From Dehalococcoidia bacterium (GTDB lineage Bacteria; Chloroflexota; Dehalococcoidia; GIF9; AB-539-J10): DNA of 64,000 bases. The position numbers were made by a program, and so were the translations under genes. The notes below the pieces were generated by a model that had not been told where the DNA came from, ran no database searches, and was given only the letters and a program-made list of their open reading frames with translations. Where the stretch lies: the NCBI GenBank assembly GCA_034414555.1, contig DAOUMA010000008.1:11039-75038 (forward strand), in the 5' to 3' direction. Shown in pieces: positions 9,287 through 36,255 of this stretch; position 1 is the first letter of the stretch; each line of letters opens with the position of its first letter.

Positions 9287-10405
9287 TTAAATAATAGGCT
9301 TAGTCATCTCGAGGTCAGAATATGACGTAATTCCACGCTCCTTCATATAAGTGAAGAACTTGATTGGCTCCAGACAAGCTTCGGGACCATAGACCCCTCC
9401 TTTTGTGGTGAGAATTTCCTTACGGGCAAGCATCAAAGTGCCCACAGCTAGAGAAAGCCCGGTGGATTCCCGCATCTGGGCAATCCCGCAGCCTACCTCA
9501 TGCACTTCTTTACTGCCTTTCTCACCCCAGACATCAAGCCGAATCGCCCCCCATTCTGGCTCTTGAGGCTTACCCAGGTGTTCGAGGCTATTCAGTATCT
9601 TAGCTGCTGCTCGCTGACGCCGCTTACCCCCGAAAAATCCCAGCTTTGCGGGTAACACTAACCAGTTGGAGCCACGTCCAAAGCCCATAAACAAATTGAC
9701 TTCCTCTATCCCGGGGATAAAGAGGGGAATGGTGACTGGCTCACCATGCCCCATATTCCAGACCTTGATGGAGCCGAACCTAGGAAATTCAACCAGCCGC
9801 TCCTCGCTGCAGGCAGGCACCATCATCCGCTTTCCATCCCGCCAGATTGGAATTCTTCCCCCCATAATGAATAAGGTATGCTTGACCACCGCCTCACCTC
9901 CACCCGCTTTCAAAGGCATATAGACATTGATATCCGCTCGGCGAACCTTGTCCATCTGCTGGGCAAGATAACGAACTCCAATATTGGAGAGTCCCGGGCT
10001 GGCACCCAGGCCACTGATGACCGTGACTCCTTTTTCGCGAGCCTTTTCAGAGAATTGATTGATTACTTCATCTGCGGCGAGCCAATCATCACAGATGCTG
10101 GTATAATTAACCCCAGCATCAATCGCTGCCCGCACCAGTTTGGCCTCAAAGAGATAGAAAGGACCGAGGGCAGATGCGGCCACATCGTAACCCAGCATCG
10201 CATCTACCAGACCATTATGATCGTTGCCATCTACGGACTTGACATCCACCTTGGCTTTTGCCTTTTGGAGCCTGCCGGCAATCTGACGGGCTACTTCCAC
10301 ATTGTGATCTGCAATGGTAACTTGCTCAATCCCTTCAGCCTGTGCCAGCTCTTCAACTGCACGACTTCCCATATCGCCGGCGCCCCCCAGAACTATGATC
10401 TTCAT
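9287..10405 (-). CDS. Saccharopine dehydrogenase NADP-binding domain protein
   Basis: MKIIVLGGAGDMGSRAVEEL Rossmann N-terminus and saccharopine-dehydrogenase-like body. AAGGAGGG RBS before the ATG at 10405. First gene of a four-gene minus-strand operon (10405->5698). Confidence 0.7.
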   Translation of the reverse strand: MKIIVLGGAGDMGSRAVEELAQAEGIEQVTIADHNVEVARQIAGRLQKAKAKVDVKSVDGNDHNGLVDAMLGYDVAASALGPFYLFEAKLVRAAIDAGVNYTSICDDWLAADEVINQFSEKAREKGVTVISGLGASPGLSNIGVRYLAQQMDKVRRADINVYMPLKAGGGEAVVKHTLFIMGGRIPIWRDGKRMMVPACSEERLVEFPRFGSIKVWNMGHGEPVTIPLFIPGIEEVNLFMGFGRGSNWLVLPAKLGFFGGKRRQRAAAKILNSLEHLGKPQEPEWGAIRLDVWGEKGSKEVHEVGCGIAQMRESTGLSLAVGTLMLARKEILTTKGGVYGPEACLEPIKFFTYMKERGITSYSDLEMTKPII

Positions 10406-10546: not shown

Positions 10547-10576
10547 ATAGTGGTTCAAATCCACCATCGCCCACCA
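10547..10576 (+). other. tRNA 3'-end-like fragment (T-arm GGTTCAAATCC + acceptor 3' strand + CCA), no 5' half
   Basis: gtggTTCAAATccacc followed by atcgccc-a-CCA reads as a T-arm, 7-nt acceptor strand, discriminator and CCA. No complementary 5' acceptor strand (gggcgat) occurs within 100 nt upstream, so this is a fragment, not a gene. Confidence 0.35.
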
Positions 10577-10638
10577 TAGATATGAACTGAAAGCATCAGA
10601 GCTGATTGTTTAGCAAACCGCAAGTAGCCGAATAATAC

Positions 10639-10668
10639 TTGACACTAATTAGACATTTGTAATACAAT
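10639..10668 (+). promoter_or_regulatory. Sigma70-like promoter of brnT-brnA (TTGACA-18 nt-TACAAT)
   Basis: Perfect -35 TTGACA at 10639-10644 and -10 TACAAT at 10663-10668. The ATG at 10667 overlaps the -10 box, so it cannot be the start codon. Confidence 0.5.
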
Positions 10669-10687
10669 GTATTACAAAGAGGCTAGG

Positions 10688-10972
10688 TTGATTTTTATAA
10701 CATACCCATTAATTTGGGCTCAAGCAGTAGTGGATAAGATTTGGCAGAAACACCATGTTACTCCTGAAGAAGTTGAGGAGGCAATTTATGATGACAAACC
10801 GATTTGCCACAAAGGTACATCAAACTCATATTGTGTATATGGGCAAGCTGTATCTGGATGCTACCTATTCATAGTTTTGGGAAGGAGAGGCAGGAGAGCA
10901 CAATATAAAGTTATCACGGCTCGGGATATGCAGGATAGAGAAAAGCGATATTATCGCAAACATCGAAATTAA
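10688..10972 (+). CDS. brnT: BrnT-like (DUF497) type II toxin ribonuclease
   Basis: IWAQAVVDKIWQKHHVTPEEVEEAI matches the DUF497 N-terminal KHGVsfEEaeevF block. C-terminal KVITARDMQDREKRYY matches the RIISARkAtkkERkfY signature. Start moved to TTG at 10688 (AAAGAGG RBS at 10676-10682) because the annotated ATG lies inside the promoter -10. Confidence 0.55.
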   Translation: MIFITYPLIWAQAVVDKIWQKHHVTPEEVEEAIYDDKPICHKGTSNSYCVYGQAVSGCYLFIVLGRRGRRAQYKVITARDMQDREKRYYRKHRN

Positions 10973-10989
10973 GCGATATCAAAGTAGAG

Positions 10990-11550
10990 ATGCGAAAGGA
11001 GGGAAAAAGGAAAGTGGAGAAAAAGCTTATACCTCAGTTTGAGACAGAAGAGCAAGAAGCGGAGTATTGGGATTCACATAGTCCTCTCGATCTTGCCACT
11101 GAACCTAAGGCTCAAAAGGTGCGTGTGAGGGGTGTTAAAGACAGGCCGATAACAATTCGCCTTGATAGCAAAAGCCGCTCGAAGCTTGACAGATTAGCCG
11201 CTGAGCAAAGGCTTGGACCTTCTACCTTTGCTCGACTTATCCTTATGTCAGTAATTGAGCAGGGGAATAAGCTGCCAAAACACATAACTTTAGATGAGCT
11301 TAGGAAGATGCTGGAAGAGATTACGCCGCAATCGGTAAAGGATCGAGCTGACCTCCTTGCTAAAGAAGCAGCTATAGGTGATCCTGACAATCCGAGCTTT
11401 CTTATCCTCAACCAGTCTCAAATAAATGAATGGGGAGAACTTGGGTTGCAGGCTATCTGCACATTTCTTGAAATGTGTAATATTCATGTAATTACTCCTA
11501 AACATAGCGAATACAAGGAGGTAAAAACTCTTGTGCAGTCATACAAATAG
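10990..11550 (+). CDS. brnA: BrnA-like antitoxin (CopG/RHH) with ~85-aa C-terminal extension
   Basis: ETEEQEAEYWDSHSPLD followed by PITIRLDSKSRSKLDRLAAEQRLGPSTFARLIL matches the BrnA_antitoxin family pattern (E-E-FWDTHD ... itiRld ... YQtLI). Lies 18 nt downstream of brnT. Residues ~100-186 have no recognisable family. Confidence 0.55.
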   Translation: MRKEGKRKVEKKLIPQFETEEQEAEYWDSHSPLDLATEPKAQKVRVRGVKDRPITIRLDSKSRSKLDRLAAEQRLGPSTFARLILMSVIEQGNKLPKHITLDELRKMLEEITPQSVKDRADLLAKEAAIGDPDNPSFLILNQSQINEWGELGLQAICTFLEMCNIHVITPKHSEYKEVKTLVQSYK

Positions 11551-11568
11551 GATGGAGGTAGATTATCA

Positions 11569-11787
11569 ATGGCAATTCAATCCAGTCCCATTAAATTAGA
11601 AAAACGAACGCTACCAGGACAGCCTACTCAGTTTAGCCCTCCTCAGTTAGATGAGAGCTACTTCGAAAAATTGGCTGCCTTTGGCATTGCTTGTCTTGCA
11701 GCTGCGATTGTGGGTAAATTAACGATGACAATTTTATCCCCTCATCATAAAAGACAGTTACCAAATACCCTAGAGCAGCTAAAATAG
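11569..11787 (+). CDS. Hypothetical small protein with one predicted TM helix
   Basis: 72-aa ORF with a GGAGGT RBS 8 nt upstream of the ATG. Hydrophobic stretch AAFGIACLAAAIVGKL. No family recognised. Confidence 0.3.
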   Translation: MAIQSSPIKLEKRTLPGQPTQFSPPQLDESYFEKLAAFGIACLAAAIVGKLTMTILSPHHKRQLPNTLEQLK

Positions 11788-11815
11788 AACTGTAACGGCA
11801 TGATATTTAGGCAGA

Positions 11816-11827
11816 GGTTCAAATCCC
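11816..11827 (+). repeat. Second GGTTCAAATCC(C) tRNA T-arm-like fragment (imperfect direct repeat of 10552-10563)
   Basis: 12-nt ggttcaaatccc shares 11/12 with the tRNA-like fragment at 10552-10563. The flanks are only loosely similar and it does not fold as a T-arm. Confidence 0.2.
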
Positions 11828-12018
11828 ATAGCACCTACTATTCATACTGCTGCTCTTTTTAAGTCGTAAATTGGCAAGTTTCTGTAAATTTTGTTGTAGC
11901 TTTATGATGCTTATGGTATAAGACTACAGCCAAAGGTGAATTTCCTTTAGATGGCAGGCATTGTCACGCTTAAATCCTCTAGGTACACCAATAGAAAGGG
12001 AGATAATAGGAAGATTCT

Positions 12019-12993
12019 ATGAGAAAGAAATTTGTTGAATTGCTATTTGATGAATATGCTAAAAGTTTAACTGCGAGAAATCCCAAATTAAAGGATATGT
12101 TTTTATGCCCAATATGTATGCGCCCCTTTTACAGGGAATCCATAAATAACAAAGCTATTAGTATAGAACACATTCCACCACAAGCAATAGGAAGCTCAAT
12201 GAAAACGATAACATGCACAAAATGCAACAATGATATAGGTGCCAAGCTTCAGCCTCACATGAATAATTATGTTAGAGAAAAAGATTTATTGGCGGGCAGA
12301 GTACTAAAACCAATCCCAGCTAAAGTAGAAATTAATGGACGCACAATTCATACACGCATTACAGAGAATAAAGGGGGAGGCAATTGGACTGGGGTTAGTG
12401 TGAAAACTCAGTTGCCACCAGATATATGGCCTGAAAATGCTAAAAAATACGTAGGGAAAAAGGCCATCATTTCTTTGCAGATACCGGCTTCAAAAGAGAT
12501 TGTAGATGCAGCTTATTTGCATTCTACATATTTAGCATTATTTAGCTTATTAGGATATCCGTACATAATGCAGCCGTTTCTTGATCCGATAAGGAAAAAG
12601 ATTAATGATTACTCGTTGAAAAAAGGTATCGCACATAGGTTATTAATACCTAAGTTATTAGCTCCTAAATTCTTCCTAGACCCTAGAGACCGCAGAGTTG
12701 AAGTTGCGCTAATTTGGAATCGGAAAAAGATAGATATAAGCTGCCTTGGTGTGATAATAGCAGGTGAGATAGTATTGATGCCTTTCATAAGTGAATATTA
12801 CAAAGATATATATTTGGAGTTTTCATCATATCTGACTAATCTTCAAAAAGGTGTTAAGAGAAAGCTTCCATTTGGGGTTACCCCGTTAGAGATGCACCCA
12901 GCTTTAAAATACTCTATAGCTTATACATTTGAAGAGGGAAAAGAATTAGATGGTATGAAATCTCTCAGGTTAGTACCTCTGAAAGAAACTTAA
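12019..12993 (+). CDS. HNH (His-Me finger) nuclease-motif protein with zinc ribbon and uncharacterised C-terminal domain
   Basis: CPICMRPF ... ISIEHIPPQAIGSSMKTITCTKCNN fits the HNH pattern CxxC ... (D/E)HIxP ... CxxCN. The remaining ~230 aa have no recognisable motifs. The gene is visibly AT-rich (~35% GC) against ~50% flanks. Confidence 0.5.
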   Translation: MRKKFVELLFDEYAKSLTARNPKLKDMFLCPICMRPFYRESINNKAISIEHIPPQAIGSSMKTITCTKCNNDIGAKLQPHMNNYVREKDLLAGRVLKPIPAKVEINGRTIHTRITENKGGGNWTGVSVKTQLPPDIWPENAKKYVGKKAIISLQIPASKEIVDAAYLHSTYLALFSLLGYPYIMQPFLDPIRKKINDYSLKKGIAHRLLIPKLLAPKFFLDPRDRRVEVALIWNRKKIDISCLGVIIAGEIVLMPFISEYYKDIYLEFSSYLTNLQKGVKRKLPFGVTPLEMHPALKYSIAYTFEEGKELDGMKSLRLVPLKET

Positions 12994-13013
12994 ATCACCC
13001 TACCATCTACCTT

Positions 13014-33827: not shown

Positions 33828-34109
33828 CTAACCCCCTTTCCCTTTCAATATTGCCTGATTTAATCCCCTTGTTAGCTGAGATTTGAGTCTGGCACCCTTA
33901 TTGCGATGAATAACCCCTTTACTTACCGCCTTATCTATACTGCTTACTGTCTTTAGCATCTCTTTTTGCGCTAGCTCCATATCCCCAGATGCAATAACCT
34001 TCTCCGTTTTACCAATAGCAGTCTTCATCCTACTTTTTACTGCGCTATTCCTTAACCTCCTTTTCTCCGCAACTCGAGCCGTTCTGGTAGCCATTTTACC
34101 TCTGGACAT
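33828..34109 (-). CDS. rpsT: 30S ribosomal protein S20
   Basis: ARVAEKRRLRNSAVKSRMKTAIGK ... KGVIHRNKGARLKSQL aligns with bacterial S20. The true start may be at MATRTAR. Its stop lies 4 nt before lexA and its start overlaps the rel stop. Confidence 0.75.
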   Translation of the reverse strand: MSRGKMATRTARVAEKRRLRNSAVKSRMKTAIGKTEKVIASGDMELAQKEMLKTVSSIDKAVSKGVIHRNKGARLKSQLTRGLNQAILKGKGG

Positions 34110-36255
34110 TCTCTTCTCCTTTTCTTCTCACCTTTATTACACCCCAAATTGAGTAAATCTTAGATATCAAGTTAGCTAATTGAGCAGCACCCATTACTTC
34201 CAAACTAAACTTTAACGAGGTAACGTCATCATGACCCGCCATATTAACATCAGTGATATTCACCCCTTCGCTGGCAATGATAGCACTAATATCCCGAACC
34301 AAGCCTACCCTATCCCCAGCGTCAACTTGAATAGCCACCGGGTAAGTTTGCTCCACATTACCCCACTCCACCTCAATCAGTCGCTCCTTCTCCACTTCAT
34401 TAATTATATTAGGGCAATCCCGACGATGCACGGTGATACCTCGACCTCGAGTAATATAACCGAGAATTTTATCACCTGGCAAGGGATGGCAACAACTTGC
34501 CAGATTCGTGACCAGGTTGCCTATACCTAGCACCTTAATGCTTGCCGAACTAACCTTTCTGGAAGGATGAACTTCGACCAGTTCTTCAGGCTGTTCTTCA
34601 CTTACGGTTAATCTTGCTATTATTTGAGAGGGATTAAGGCTGCCAGACCCGATGGCAGCAAAAAAGTCATCCCCATTTTTAAAACCAAATAGCGGTGCCA
34701 CTTCGTCAACGCTTGGGAAGGTAACACCCGATTTCCTAAGTTCCCGCTCCAGAAATTGCTTTCCCACCTCAATGCTTTGAGTCTTGTCTTGCTTTTTAAA
34801 CCATTGGCGGATTTTTGCCCGTGCATGAGAGGTTTTAACATAGCCAAGTTCAGGATTTAGCCAATCCAGACTGGGACCCTTTTCCCCCTTAGCGACAATA
34901 ATCTCCACCACGTCACCATTATTGAGGTTATAGTTCAAGGGCACTAATCGCCCATTTACTTTTGCTCCCGCACAGCGATAACCCATGTCGGTATGGACGC
35001 GAAATGCGAAATCCAAAGGCGTTGCCCCTTTGGATAATTCCTTTATTTCGCCTTTAGGAGTAAAAACAAATACTTGCTCAGCGAGAATATCGGTTTTGAC
35101 GGATTCTAAAAATTCCTTGCTATCAACCTCATCTCGCCACTCAACCAGCTGAGGCAGCCAGGCTATCCCCTTAAAAGACTCCCCTTCTTTTTCCACTTCC
35201 TTATAATGCCAATGGGCAGCTAATCCATGTTCAGCAACTCGGTCCATTTCATAAGTTCGAATTTGCACCTCTAGTGGACTCCCACGGTATATTACCGTGG
35301 TATGTAGAGACTGATACCCATTCCCCTTGGGATTAGCAATAAAATCGTTAAATTCTTCAGGTAGCGGGTGCCAAAAAATGTGAACTATTCCTAGAGCCTT
35401 ATAGCAGTCTGAAACTGAATTAACCAGTATACGCACGCCAAAAAGGTCATAGATATCGCCAAAATCCTTGCCCTGCGAAGCATATTTCCCCATTTTCCGA
35501 TAGATACTATAAACATGCTTAGGCCTGCCGGAAACTGCTGCCTCTACACCAGCTTTGTTCAATTCCCCGCTTAACGCTTGGATAGCCTCGTTTACAAAGC
35601 CTTCCCTTTCCTCTCGATTCGAAGCTACCAAACGAGCAACTCGATGATATTGCCGGGGCTCCAAATAACGAAAAGCCAAATCCTCTAACTGCCATTTTAC
35701 GCTTCGTATACCCAGACGATGTGCTAGCGGAGCGTATATCTCCAAAGTCTCTTGTGCAATAGCGAGGCGTTTTCCCCGCGGCAAAACTCCAAGAGTGCGC
35801 ATATTATGTAACCGGTCAGCTAATTTTATATATATAACCCTTAAATCCTCCGCAGTGGCTACAAGCATCTTGCGTAGATTTTCCACCTGAAGCTCTCTCT
35901 TAGCTGCACCTCCATAAACTGGCTTTGACAACCTACTCAATTTCGTGGTGCCCCGTACTAATTTAGCTACTTCGTCACCAAAGTTAATCTTGATTTCATC
36001 CATTGAGACTCCACAATCCTCGGGAACATCGTGCAGCAAGGCGGCCGCTAGAGTAGCAACATCAAACTGAAGCTCAGCTAAAATCATCGCTACACCAAGA
36101 GGATGCTCCAGGTAAGGCTCTCCTGATTTCCGCAACTGCCCTTGATGTGCCTCACGAGCAAAATTATAGGCTTTCTCAATCAGTGCTACCTGTTCTTCTG
36201 GCAGGTATGCTCTCACCTTGTCTAAAAACTGTGTCTCTTCCATTAAATTCATCAT
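34096..36255 (-). CDS. rel: Bifunctional (p)ppGpp synthetase/hydrolase Rel/SpoT
   Basis: HD hydrolase domain (HLLHDVPED), RelA_SpoT synthetase, TGS and C-terminal ACT domain at 719 aa. Confidence 0.9.
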   Translation of the reverse strand: MMNLMEETQFLDKVRAYLPEEQVALIEKAYNFAREAHQGQLRKSGEPYLEHPLGVAMILAELQFDVATLAAALLHDVPEDCGVSMDEIKINFGDEVAKLVRGTTKLSRLSKPVYGGAAKRELQVENLRKMLVATAEDLRVIYIKLADRLHNMRTLGVLPRGKRLAIAQETLEIYAPLAHRLGIRSVKWQLEDLAFRYLEPRQYHRVARLVASNREEREGFVNEAIQALSGELNKAGVEAAVSGRPKHVYSIYRKMGKYASQGKDFGDIYDLFGVRILVNSVSDCYKALGIVHIFWHPLPEEFNDFIANPKGNGYQSLHTTVIYRGSPLEVQIRTYEMDRVAEHGLAAHWHYKEVEKEGESFKGIAWLPQLVEWRDEVDSKEFLESVKTDILAEQVFVFTPKGEIKELSKGATPLDFAFRVHTDMGYRCAGAKVNGRLVPLNYNLNNGDVVEIIVAKGEKGPSLDWLNPELGYVKTSHARAKIRQWFKKQDKTQSIEVGKQFLERELRKSGVTFPSVDEVAPLFGFKNGDDFFAAIGSGSLNPSQIIARLTVSEEQPEELVEVHPSRKVSSASIKVLGIGNLVTNLASCCHPLPGDKILGYITRGRGITVHRRDCPNIINEVEKERLIEVEWGNVEQTYPVAIQVDAGDRVGLVRDISAIIASEGVNITDVNMAGHDDVTSLKFSLEVMGAAQLANLISKIYSIWGVIKVRRKGEENVQR

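Follow-up and report, generated by a model that had tools for sequence, protein, structure and literature searches.

The HNH_5-family gene described here does not represent a new kind of system; its product is a divergent new member of a protein family that is known but uncharacterised. Its C-terminal part of about 230 residues, which an earlier note on this DNA had taken for a novel domain joined to an HNH effector, is, as judged from sequence homology, a real and unannotated standard scaffold of a large family of stand-alone HNH_5 proteins. The analysis so far serves mainly to correct the earlier reading, in that the C-terminal region characterises a whole family and the idea of an orphan restriction enzyme is set aside. 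A specialist would find nothing unexpected in the gene, and the claimed novel partner domain does not hold. The product is probably an active solitary HNH_5-family nuclease encoded on acquired DNA. As a composite explanation, a solitary HNH_5 DNA endonuclease on an acquired islet, with a restriction-like role in genetic conflict, is put forward with slightly less than even confidence, and a defence role taken by itself is proposed tentatively. The term window denotes the whole stretch of 64,000 nucleotides that was analysed; loci of relatives carry the letter L and a number.

The gene and its expression signals

The open reading frame is present exactly as first described, and so are the peptides quoted from its product (C30-P-I-C33, I48-S-I-E50-H51-I-P-P, and T65-C66-T-K-C69-N70-N71); the catalytic histidine, previously named H53, is located at position 51 (Table 1). 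The protein matches Pfam HNH_5 (PF14279) over residues 30-82 (E=5.4e-8, 33.1 bits vs a gathering cutoff of 27.5) and is basic in both halves, with a pI of 9.6 and a net charge of +20. Its designation as the most AT-rich gene in the window is borne out by a GC content of 0.358, the lowest among 47 window ORFs (mean 0.472, SD 0.037), i.e. 3 SD under the window genes; GC3 amounts to 0.31 vs approximately 0.47 in the core neighbours. A dN/dS of 0.22-0.26 (about 0.23) vs the orthologues of L003 and L012 identifies a maintained coding gene under purifying selection.

An own ribosome-binding site and an own -10 element had been ascribed to the gene. The former is plausible, as AGGAA(G/A) recurs at the same spacing before the orthologues of L003 and L012. 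The latter did not stand: a scan for the sigma-70 consensus yielded 7 sites vs 8.6 expected in shuffled sequences and none in the 231-bp spacer before the gene, and an own sigma-70 promoter was rejected since the sites do not exceed chance.

Table 1. Features of the HNH_5 locus (positions in the window)
Feature	Position	Strand	Basis and remarks
tRNA-3'-end-like direct repeat, copy 1	10549..10577 (34-nt repeat copy 10549-10582)	+	left cassette edge; T-arm, acceptor 3' strand and CCA: AGTGGTTCAAATCCACCATCGCCCACCA
BrnT-like toxin gene, 101 aa	10667..10972	+	Pfam BrnT_toxin E=1.8e-6, 28.6 bits, below cutoff 34.5
CopG/RHH-like putative antitoxin gene, 186 aa	10990..11550	+	extra C-terminal half; weak Pfam CopG_antitoxin match (E=0.008), PHROG RHH/Arc-like matches
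72-aa ORF	11569..11787	+	one hydrophobic segment; conserved in the close clade only; no family match
Degenerate tRNA-3'-end-like repeat, copy 2	11813..11846	+	after the 72-aa ORF, in the 231-bp spacer ahead of the HNH_5 gene; exact core GGTTCAAATCC
Shine-Dalgarno-like AGGAAG	12008..12013	+	5 nt upstream of the ATG; read from the sequence, function inferred
HNH_5-family gene, 324 aa	12019..12993	+	ATG start; ORF listing and Pfam match
Zn-stabilised beta-beta-alpha-Me (HNH) finger, predicted	12106..12291	+	residues 30-91; Pfam match 30-82, AlphaFold2 model
Family-wide C-terminal scaffold	12304..12990	+	residues 96-324; mixed beta-sheet and helices; homologous across the broad family
Most conserved scaffold block	12493..12606	+	residues 159-196, AAYLHSTYLALFSLLGYPYIMQPFLDPIRKKI; conservation in 60 diverse members

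The HNH finger

The reading as a beta-beta-alpha-Me zinc-finger nuclease is upheld by the Pfam match above cutoff together with the conserved residues. Two CxxC pairs (C30 and C33, C66 and C69) constitute the predicted zinc site, and the motif assigns to E50-H51 the roles of acidic residue and general base and to N70 that of the structural asparagine. Column counts over 60 members of the broad family find C30, C33, C66, C69, and N70 invariant (60/60) and H51 in 58; in the subclade of the window protein, both H51 and N70 are present in 17/17 members, two alignment rows without the finger cysteines being miscalled starts. The check by structure prediction suggested in the earlier note returned a beta-beta-alpha topology at the motif: the AlphaFold2 model places strands at residues 47-49 and 64-66, followed by a helix at 67-91, with a pLDDT of about 90 except in the loop 56-58.

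Among solved structures, the finger gives weak profile matches to HNH domains of the Cas9/IscB/4h9d type (9k30 IscB at E=0.046, then 4h9d and 8d2k), and no HNH structures were retrieved by Foldseek with the AlphaFold2 model, as expected because the motif is so small. The HNH domains of Cas9, IscB, and the GVE2/4h9d nicking enzyme share the layout E/D-H...N...(N/D) with the window protein. In contrast, the match is limited to the finger of approximately 45 residues, and a RuvC domain, a guide RNA, and a phage-terminase context are absent.

HNH enzymes usually put the last metal ligand about where position 78 falls, eight residues past N70, and Q78 is presumed to be the metal-ligand position of the finger. 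Asp or Glu occupies this position in 53/60 family members and Gln in 17/17 members of the subclade, which could speak for a catalytically altered or inactive HNH_5 derivative acting as a DNA-binding or regulatory protein. Such a derivative is very improbable, as the subclade keeps H51, E50, N70, and the zinc site without exception and N83, likewise invariant there, could compensate. Amide side chains, moreover, supply the last metal ligand of genuine HNH enzymes, e.g. Asn in the Cas9 HNH domain. The zinc site, the general base, and the structural asparagine of the window protein are intact. If the protein is an active nuclease, the CxxC...CxxC zinc site would hold the beta-beta-alpha-metal finger, H51 would activate the attacking water, and E50 would coordinate the divalent metal together with residue 78, possibly aided by N83.

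The C-terminal scaffold

The C-terminal part of about 230 residues had been described as free of recognisable motifs, and this description agrees with the searches: no match was obtained in Pfam, NCBIfam, PADLOC, PHROGs, or PDB, the last at E<=10 on the sequence level, and 60 diverse family members have no other Pfam or NCBIfam domain over this part. The full-length AlphaFold2 model, built on the subclade alignment, forms one compact body (mean pLDDT 80, pTM 0.75) consisting of an N-terminal helix (residues 2-20), the finger, and a mixed sheet-and-helix body, and a separate model of residues 92-324 reaches a pLDDT of 80.7. The Foldseek comparison that the earlier note had proposed for the full length and the C-terminal part separately gave no PDB match either way (best E about 0.1, TM<=0.2), nor did either model match viral proteins (BFVD).

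The region is homologous across a large family and for this reason represents a family hallmark scaffold and no newly joined partner. In an exhaustive profile search with HMMER, 2,460 representatives at 50% identity matched with E<=1e-3, 1,502 of them at E<=1e-10, and nearly all are 290-330 aa long; the alignments mostly extend from the N-terminal helix to profile position ~205, and many reach ~290. Among distant members (about 19-26% identity), L172 is invariant along with C30, C33, C66, C69, N70, and G74 of the finger, and at least 90% conservation is seen at H51, P54, T65, P134, Y171, F175, G179, Y180, Y182, R192, and P255. Conservation culminates in the block of residues 159-196, predicted by AlphaFold2 to form helices 159-178, 180-183, and 186-196, which holds Y171, L172, F175, G179, Y180, Y182, and R192, each invariant or at least 90% conserved in the 60 members. 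The best-conserved helices carry conserved basic residues: position 168 is R, K, or H in 57/60 members and position 192 is R in 57/60. The basic scaffold of ~230 residues would most likely position the DNA and set what is cut.

Family size and distribution

A word-indexed search had found only 17 clusters (42-100% identity), which make up the subclade. Its alignment is invariant in the finger at E50, H51, P53, P54, C66, C69, N70, N71, and G74 and has C-terminal blocks at AAYLHSxYLALFSLLGYPYIMQPF, R192, P222-R223, C242, A248-G-E250, and M254-P255. In the exhaustive search, this small divergent subclade comprises only 14 representatives at E<=1e-30; besides Q78, it is distinguished by invariant N83, H168, P222-R223, and E250 and by a longer C-terminal beta-hairpin region. 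The HNH_5 Pfam model matches 56/60 diverse members of the broad family. The window protein has in common with these stand-alone proteins of ~300 aa the finger pattern CxxC...EH..P...CxxCN...G, the size of ~290-330 aa, the scaffold motifs Y171/L172/F175, G179-Y-x-Y182, R192, and P255, and the solitary occurrence, the family being mostly bacterial; it differs from them in having Gln instead of Asp/Glu at position 78 and in an identity of ~22-26% to typical members. A profile search of a collection of 5.8 billion proteins added at least 8 further family proteins, and a scan of species-representative genomes with the subclade alignment found no related loci. On plasmids, the family is present in 2 of 72,556 records.

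PF14279 corresponds to the HNH_5-only Group 8 of the His-Me finger classification, which in 2017 listed 158 bacterial proteins and 1 archaeal protein (Jablonska et al., PMC5714182). A characterised member of this group was not found in the literature consulted, and the classification itself does not discuss the group (PMC5714182). The Pfam entry is named among the abundant functions of integron cassettes, alongside toxin-antitoxin (TA) systems (PMC7370490), and a survey of defence systems linked to ATPases used it to annotate HNH domains in general (PMC11464382). With at least 1,500 clusters at 50% identity, it is a sizeable 'known unknown' family that may reasonably be considered for the role of a minimal single-gene defence nuclease.

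Genomic contexts of relatives

Sixteen independent genomic contexts of family members were surveyed. All-against-all comparison identified no neighbour that is conserved across the subclade, i.e. the gene is solitary. Relatives at 45% identity occur in differing surroundings: in L006 the neighbourhood contains genes for an Eco57I-type restriction-modification (RM) fusion, an OLD-type ATPase, PDDEXK, and Dcm, and in L007 those for an MmeI-type fusion, Polbeta NTase, PLD-SNF2, and SLFN/AlbA_2; a PIF1-WYL helicase gene adjoins in L015, and NYN-LOTUS and RNase H-like genes adjoin in L016. In L009-L011, the HNH_5 gene directly follows mfd. Among distant relatives, it follows RelE/HigA in L022, a Mucilaginibacter plasmid, stands beside a HicA/HicB array in L024 and beside DUF4926/DUF6883 in L023, lies near a DEAD-HIRAN helicase gene in L021, and is found among ordinary genes in L025, L027, and L029. 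TA genes are the immediate neighbours in 4/16 contexts. Two candidate partners were rejected: an overlapping downstream ORF of L006 and L007, which share a 50-aa N-terminal stretch of it (78% identity), is absent in L016 and all other loci, and a large upstream gene of L010 proved to be Mfd.

One suggestion holds that the protein is a Type II restriction endonuclease orphaned by the loss of its cognate methyltransferase, and either inactive or tolerated as its sites are protected or absent. It finds some backing in the size of ~300 aa and in the acquired, low-GC nature of the gene. Type II enzymes with a beta-beta-alpha-Me nuclease in a unique scaffold are a known architecture. Hpy99I belongs to Group 13 of the His-Me classification (PMC5714182). 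The search for co-occurring methyltransferase or partner genes in homologous loci, as advised in the earlier note, detected a methyltransferase adjacent to the gene in 0/16 contexts and no conserved partner; methyltransferases in the vicinity are confined to L006 and L007, where they are part of self-contained Eco57I/MmeI-type RM fusions several genes off. Since no context provides an adjacent methyltransferase and purifying selection acts in three lineages that lack one, solitariness is a family trait and not a local loss. The orphan reading is largely refuted by context and hardly credible.

A non-defence function, be it that of a selfish or homing-type endonuclease or of an accessory nuclease for DNA repair, recombination, or particular DNA structures, would fit with the several relatives located among housekeeping genes, e.g. 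directly after mfd, and with a cassette that moved between lineages. CCCC-zinc HNH fingers occur in homing and structure-specific nucleases (PMC5714182). Such a function is nevertheless unlikely: two queries returned 0 homologues in 50,697 phage genomes, IMG/VR contigs gave none either, PHROG matches of the window protein appear only at E>0.1, and no intron or intein context was seen. These results speak against a homing HNH endonuclease resident in phages, introns, or inteins. A core repair role is hard to reconcile with the patchy distribution, the low GC content, and the pseudogenised copies; frameshifted HNH_5 copies are found in L017/L018, as is typical of dispensable accessory genes.

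Proposed function and comparison with known systems

A defence role is proposed because family members recur among defence and TA genes and because a solitary nuclease has to distinguish self from non-self through a specificity of its own. The proposal loses weight because several relatives have housekeeping surroundings, because the scaffold has no recognised sensor fold, and because no member is known to have been studied experimentally. An abortive-infection or restriction-like effector, as envisaged at first, is compatible with the contexts and unproven; the window protein has no PADLOC match, and PADLOC contains no model for the HNH_5 family. In the composite explanation favoured here, the nuclease would require no conserved partner and would spare host DNA by the specificity of its scaffold, which might recognise, e.g., a structure, a sequence, or a modification characteristic of foreign DNA.

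Extended to the whole family, this explanation would make the HNH_5 proteins of ~300 residues unrecognised single-gene, methyltransferase-independent restriction-like defence nucleases, whose PDB-unmatched scaffold senses a feature of foreign DNA and which travel as minimal cassettes with TA modules. This extension is regarded as rather doubtful. If true, the anti-phage repertoire would gain a self-contained single-gene system that is very widespread and, at about 1 kb, very compact, and the scaffold would be a new one for DNA recognition, of possible biotechnological use.

Parallels are offered by Type IV (modification-dependent) HNH enzymes, e.g. McrA and the SRA-HNH enzymes TagI, ScoA3IV, and TbiR51I (PMC6212794, PMC4333417), which likewise consist of a single polypeptide of about 280-300 aa and act without a methyltransferase. 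In these enzymes a second domain decides on the cut, and they reside on acquired DNA, as the window gene does (PMC6212794, PMC4333417). The order of domains is reversed, as the HNH finger is N-terminal in the window protein, and a Type IV reader (SRA, EVE/PUA, winged helix) was not detected in it by Pfam, PDB sequence search (E<=10), or Foldseek. PtuB of the Septu system and other HNH effectors that work with AAA15/21 ATPases (PMC11464382) possess an HNH finger of the same broad type, and marginal PtuB matches were obtained for 2/60 relatives. Unlike in Septu PtuA/PtuB, an ATPase gene adjoins the HNH_5 gene in none of the contexts, and no ATPase neighbour exists in the window; the OLD-type ATPase gene of L006 is 2 kb away on the opposite strand.

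The acquired islet and its toxin-antitoxin-like neighbours

The gene had been described as sitting beside a TA pair. This holds in part: the upstream gene matches BrnT_toxin at E=1.8e-6, with a score below the cutoff, and the 186-aa ORF between it and the 72-aa ORF gives weak matches of the CopG/RHH type. Orthologues of the BrnT-like gene carry precomputed PF04365 matches, and the 186-aa protein is 72-77% identical in L003 and L012. The 72-aa ORF, with a dN/dS of 0.3-0.67, is under weaker constraint.

These three genes and the nuclease gene might form one module, e.g. a TA-controlled abortive-infection cassette in which the nuclease is restrained or regulated by the antitoxin-like or the small protein. 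In the close clade formed by the window, L001/L002, L003/L004, and L012, the BrnT-like gene, an RHH/CopG-like gene of 178-186 aa, and an ORF of 63-72 aa precede the HNH_5 gene on the same strand; the best sigma-70-like site of the region (11/12) lies at 10639-10668, ahead of the BrnT-like gene, and none lies in the spacer; and TA genes adjoin the relatives of L022, L024, and L023. However, the three loci in question belong to one closely related clade, so that the linkage may reflect shared ancestry, and the 231-bp spacer with its tRNA-like repeat parts the nuclease gene from the other three. The parts also differ in dS (window vs L003: HNH_5 0.22, BrnT 0.41, RHH 0.68), all three upstream genes are missing in the 45%-identity relatives L006, L007, L009, L015, and L016, and the adjacent TA families vary from locus to locus, a pattern suggestive of genes gathered in accessory regions without forming a fixed system. 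A common module is thus improbable, and the BrnT-like gene is probably a neighbour from a separate module; in the favoured explanation, the BrnT-like TA module would be independent of the nuclease. That the HNH_5 protein is itself a Type II TA toxin is not supported, as no conserved antitoxin adjoins it across homologues and the upstream genes are absent in the five relatives just named.

The small low-GC islet is bracketed by direct repeats resembling a tRNA 3' end, two copies of which, each of 34 nt, are present in the window. Copy 1 is kept at the left cassette edge in L001-L004 and L012, though the gene further upstream differs, being a 372-aa ORF in the window and DUF61 with an A/V-type ATPase operon in L003; copy 2 is kept in the spacers of L003 and L012. 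In L003, a third, better-preserved copy with a Val-like UAC anticodon arm is located just downstream of the HNH_5 gene, and the two outer copies of this locus match the Rfam tRNA model partially, at 23.3 and 23.7 bits and under the gathering score of 29. ARAGORN and Rfam detected no intact tRNA at the cassette of the window, and an intact tRNA or tmRNA upstream of it was rejected by the same searches; the Rfam search over the window found no RNA. Neither an integrase at the islet nor an inverted repeat just after the stop codon of the HNH_5 gene was identified, the link to integrons in the literature being at the family level only.

A trough in GC content extends over about 11400-13000. The adjacent core gene ROK has a dS of 1.48 between window and L003, i.e. 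far above the 0.22 of the HNH_5 gene; vs L012, whose core genes are closest to those of the window, the values are 0.30 for ROK and 0.40 for HNH_5. This incongruence indicates that the HNH_5 gene was exchanged between lineages more recently than the flanking core genes. Together with the repeats, the GC trough, and the frameshifted copies, it suggests that the islet was built up serially at what was once a tRNA 3' end and has since decayed, and the data point to the TA-like module and the HNH_5 gene as separate cassettes that moved between lineages. In this respect the locus neatly exemplifies, on a small scale, how genes are acquired cassette by cassette beside tRNA-derived repeats in a deep-branching bacterium. 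A defence island near the HNH_5 gene was considered and is not supported. The strong PADLOC matches of the window are SspH and mad8, and a PDC-S33 match lies at 34-36 kb.

As a separate observation, the GyrB encoded in the window shares at most 59% identity with any species-representative genome, its best matches being MAGs of Chloroflexota/Dehalococcoidia and Dormiibacterota. The products encoded in the window include DnaA, GyrB, FtsK, and RNase J, which mark the host as a bacterium.

Divergence of the islet and its flanks

The cassette, in which the HNH_5 gene follows the TA-like module, was compared between the window and L003 and L012, two loci of the close clade with the same gene order. 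Between the window and L003, dS amounts to 0.22 for the HNH_5 gene and to 1.48 for the adjoining core ROK gene; in the comparison of L012 with the window, the core genes are closer and the HNH_5 gene is more divergent. The divergence is incongruent, which implies that the cassette was recently exchanged horizontally, or recombined, between lineages.

In the window and L003, both parts of this cassette are bracketed by direct repeats resembling tRNA 3' ends. The repeats comprise T-arm, acceptor strand, and CCA, and the best L003 copies show a Val-like anticodon arm (UAC). Neither an intact tRNA nor an integrase was found at this repeat-bracketed islet. The repeats look like decayed att duplications left by serial integration at a tRNA gene.

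Features of the window and of related loci (nucleotide positions)
Feature	Locus	Position	Remark
Compared cassette	window	10667-12993	
Compared cassette	L003	8650-10954	
Compared cassette	L012	249-2513	
tRNA-3'-end-like repeats	window	10549-10577; 11813-11846	same strand
tRNA-3'-end-like repeats	L003	8493-8562; about 9800; 11123-11205	same strand
Antitoxin-like gene	window	10990-11550	
72-aa ORF	window	11569-11787	one hydrophobic segment
Antisense ORF within HNH_5 gene	window	12609-12788	(-), 59 aa
ORF overlapping HNH_5 3' end	L006	10875-12032	385 aa
ORF overlapping HNH_5 3' end	L007	10980-11300	truncated, 106 aa
Family member P0013	L006	9896-10888	
Broken copy	L017	123-1062	
Broken copy	L018	123-1061	
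RelE/ParE-HigA pair and distant family member	L022	672-2400	plasmid NZ_CP155080.1
PADLOC PDC-S33 match	window	34096-36255	
GyrB	window	37717-39639	

Genes next to and overlapping the HNH_5 gene

At about double the usual size of BrnA/CopG antitoxins, the antitoxin-like protein has a C-terminal half with no assignment. The 72-aa ORF that follows is weakly constrained (dN/dS up to 0.67), and its conservation does not extend beyond the close clade. On the Mucilaginibacter plasmid (L022), a family member of 324 aa annotated as "hypothetical protein" is directly preceded by a co-oriented RelE/ParE-HigA pair; the order TA, then HNH_5, is thus common to plasmid and window, and the TA families are unrelated.

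In L006 and L007 (relatives of 45% identity), the 3' end of the HNH_5 gene overlaps with ORFs that have an N-terminal stretch of 50 aa in common (78% identity). These ORFs match no Pfam family, and counterparts are absent from the other loci. The "conservation" of the antisense ORF in relatives is a by-product of the conserved sense frame and gives no evidence for a gene.

Broken and miscalled copies

The L017 and L018 copies (74-76% identity), split into three or four frames, are pseudogenised by frameshifts. The two "Cys-less" rows of the subclade alignment A1 are due to late start calls: the public gene calls of P0013 and P0017 begin 35 codons late and lose the first CxxC. The full L006 ORF, starting at 9896, carries an intact finger.

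Host genome and other defence-like matches

GyrB shows at most 59% identity to any of 185,579 species-representative genomes, among which this comparison found no close relative of the host. The gene set of the window is mixed, with bacterial DnaA, FtsK, and RNase J alongside NrpR-like and diphthamide-synthase-like genes, and the related MAG GCA_030605665.1 encodes DUF61 and an A/V-type ATPase.

Among 44 large window ORFs, PADLOC gave strong matches to SspH (E=2e-57) as well as to mad8 (E=3e-34), stemming from one or two ORFs outside the ten tested individually; they could reflect a genuine defence gene in another part of the window or housekeeping genes that resemble one. A further match was to PDC-S33.
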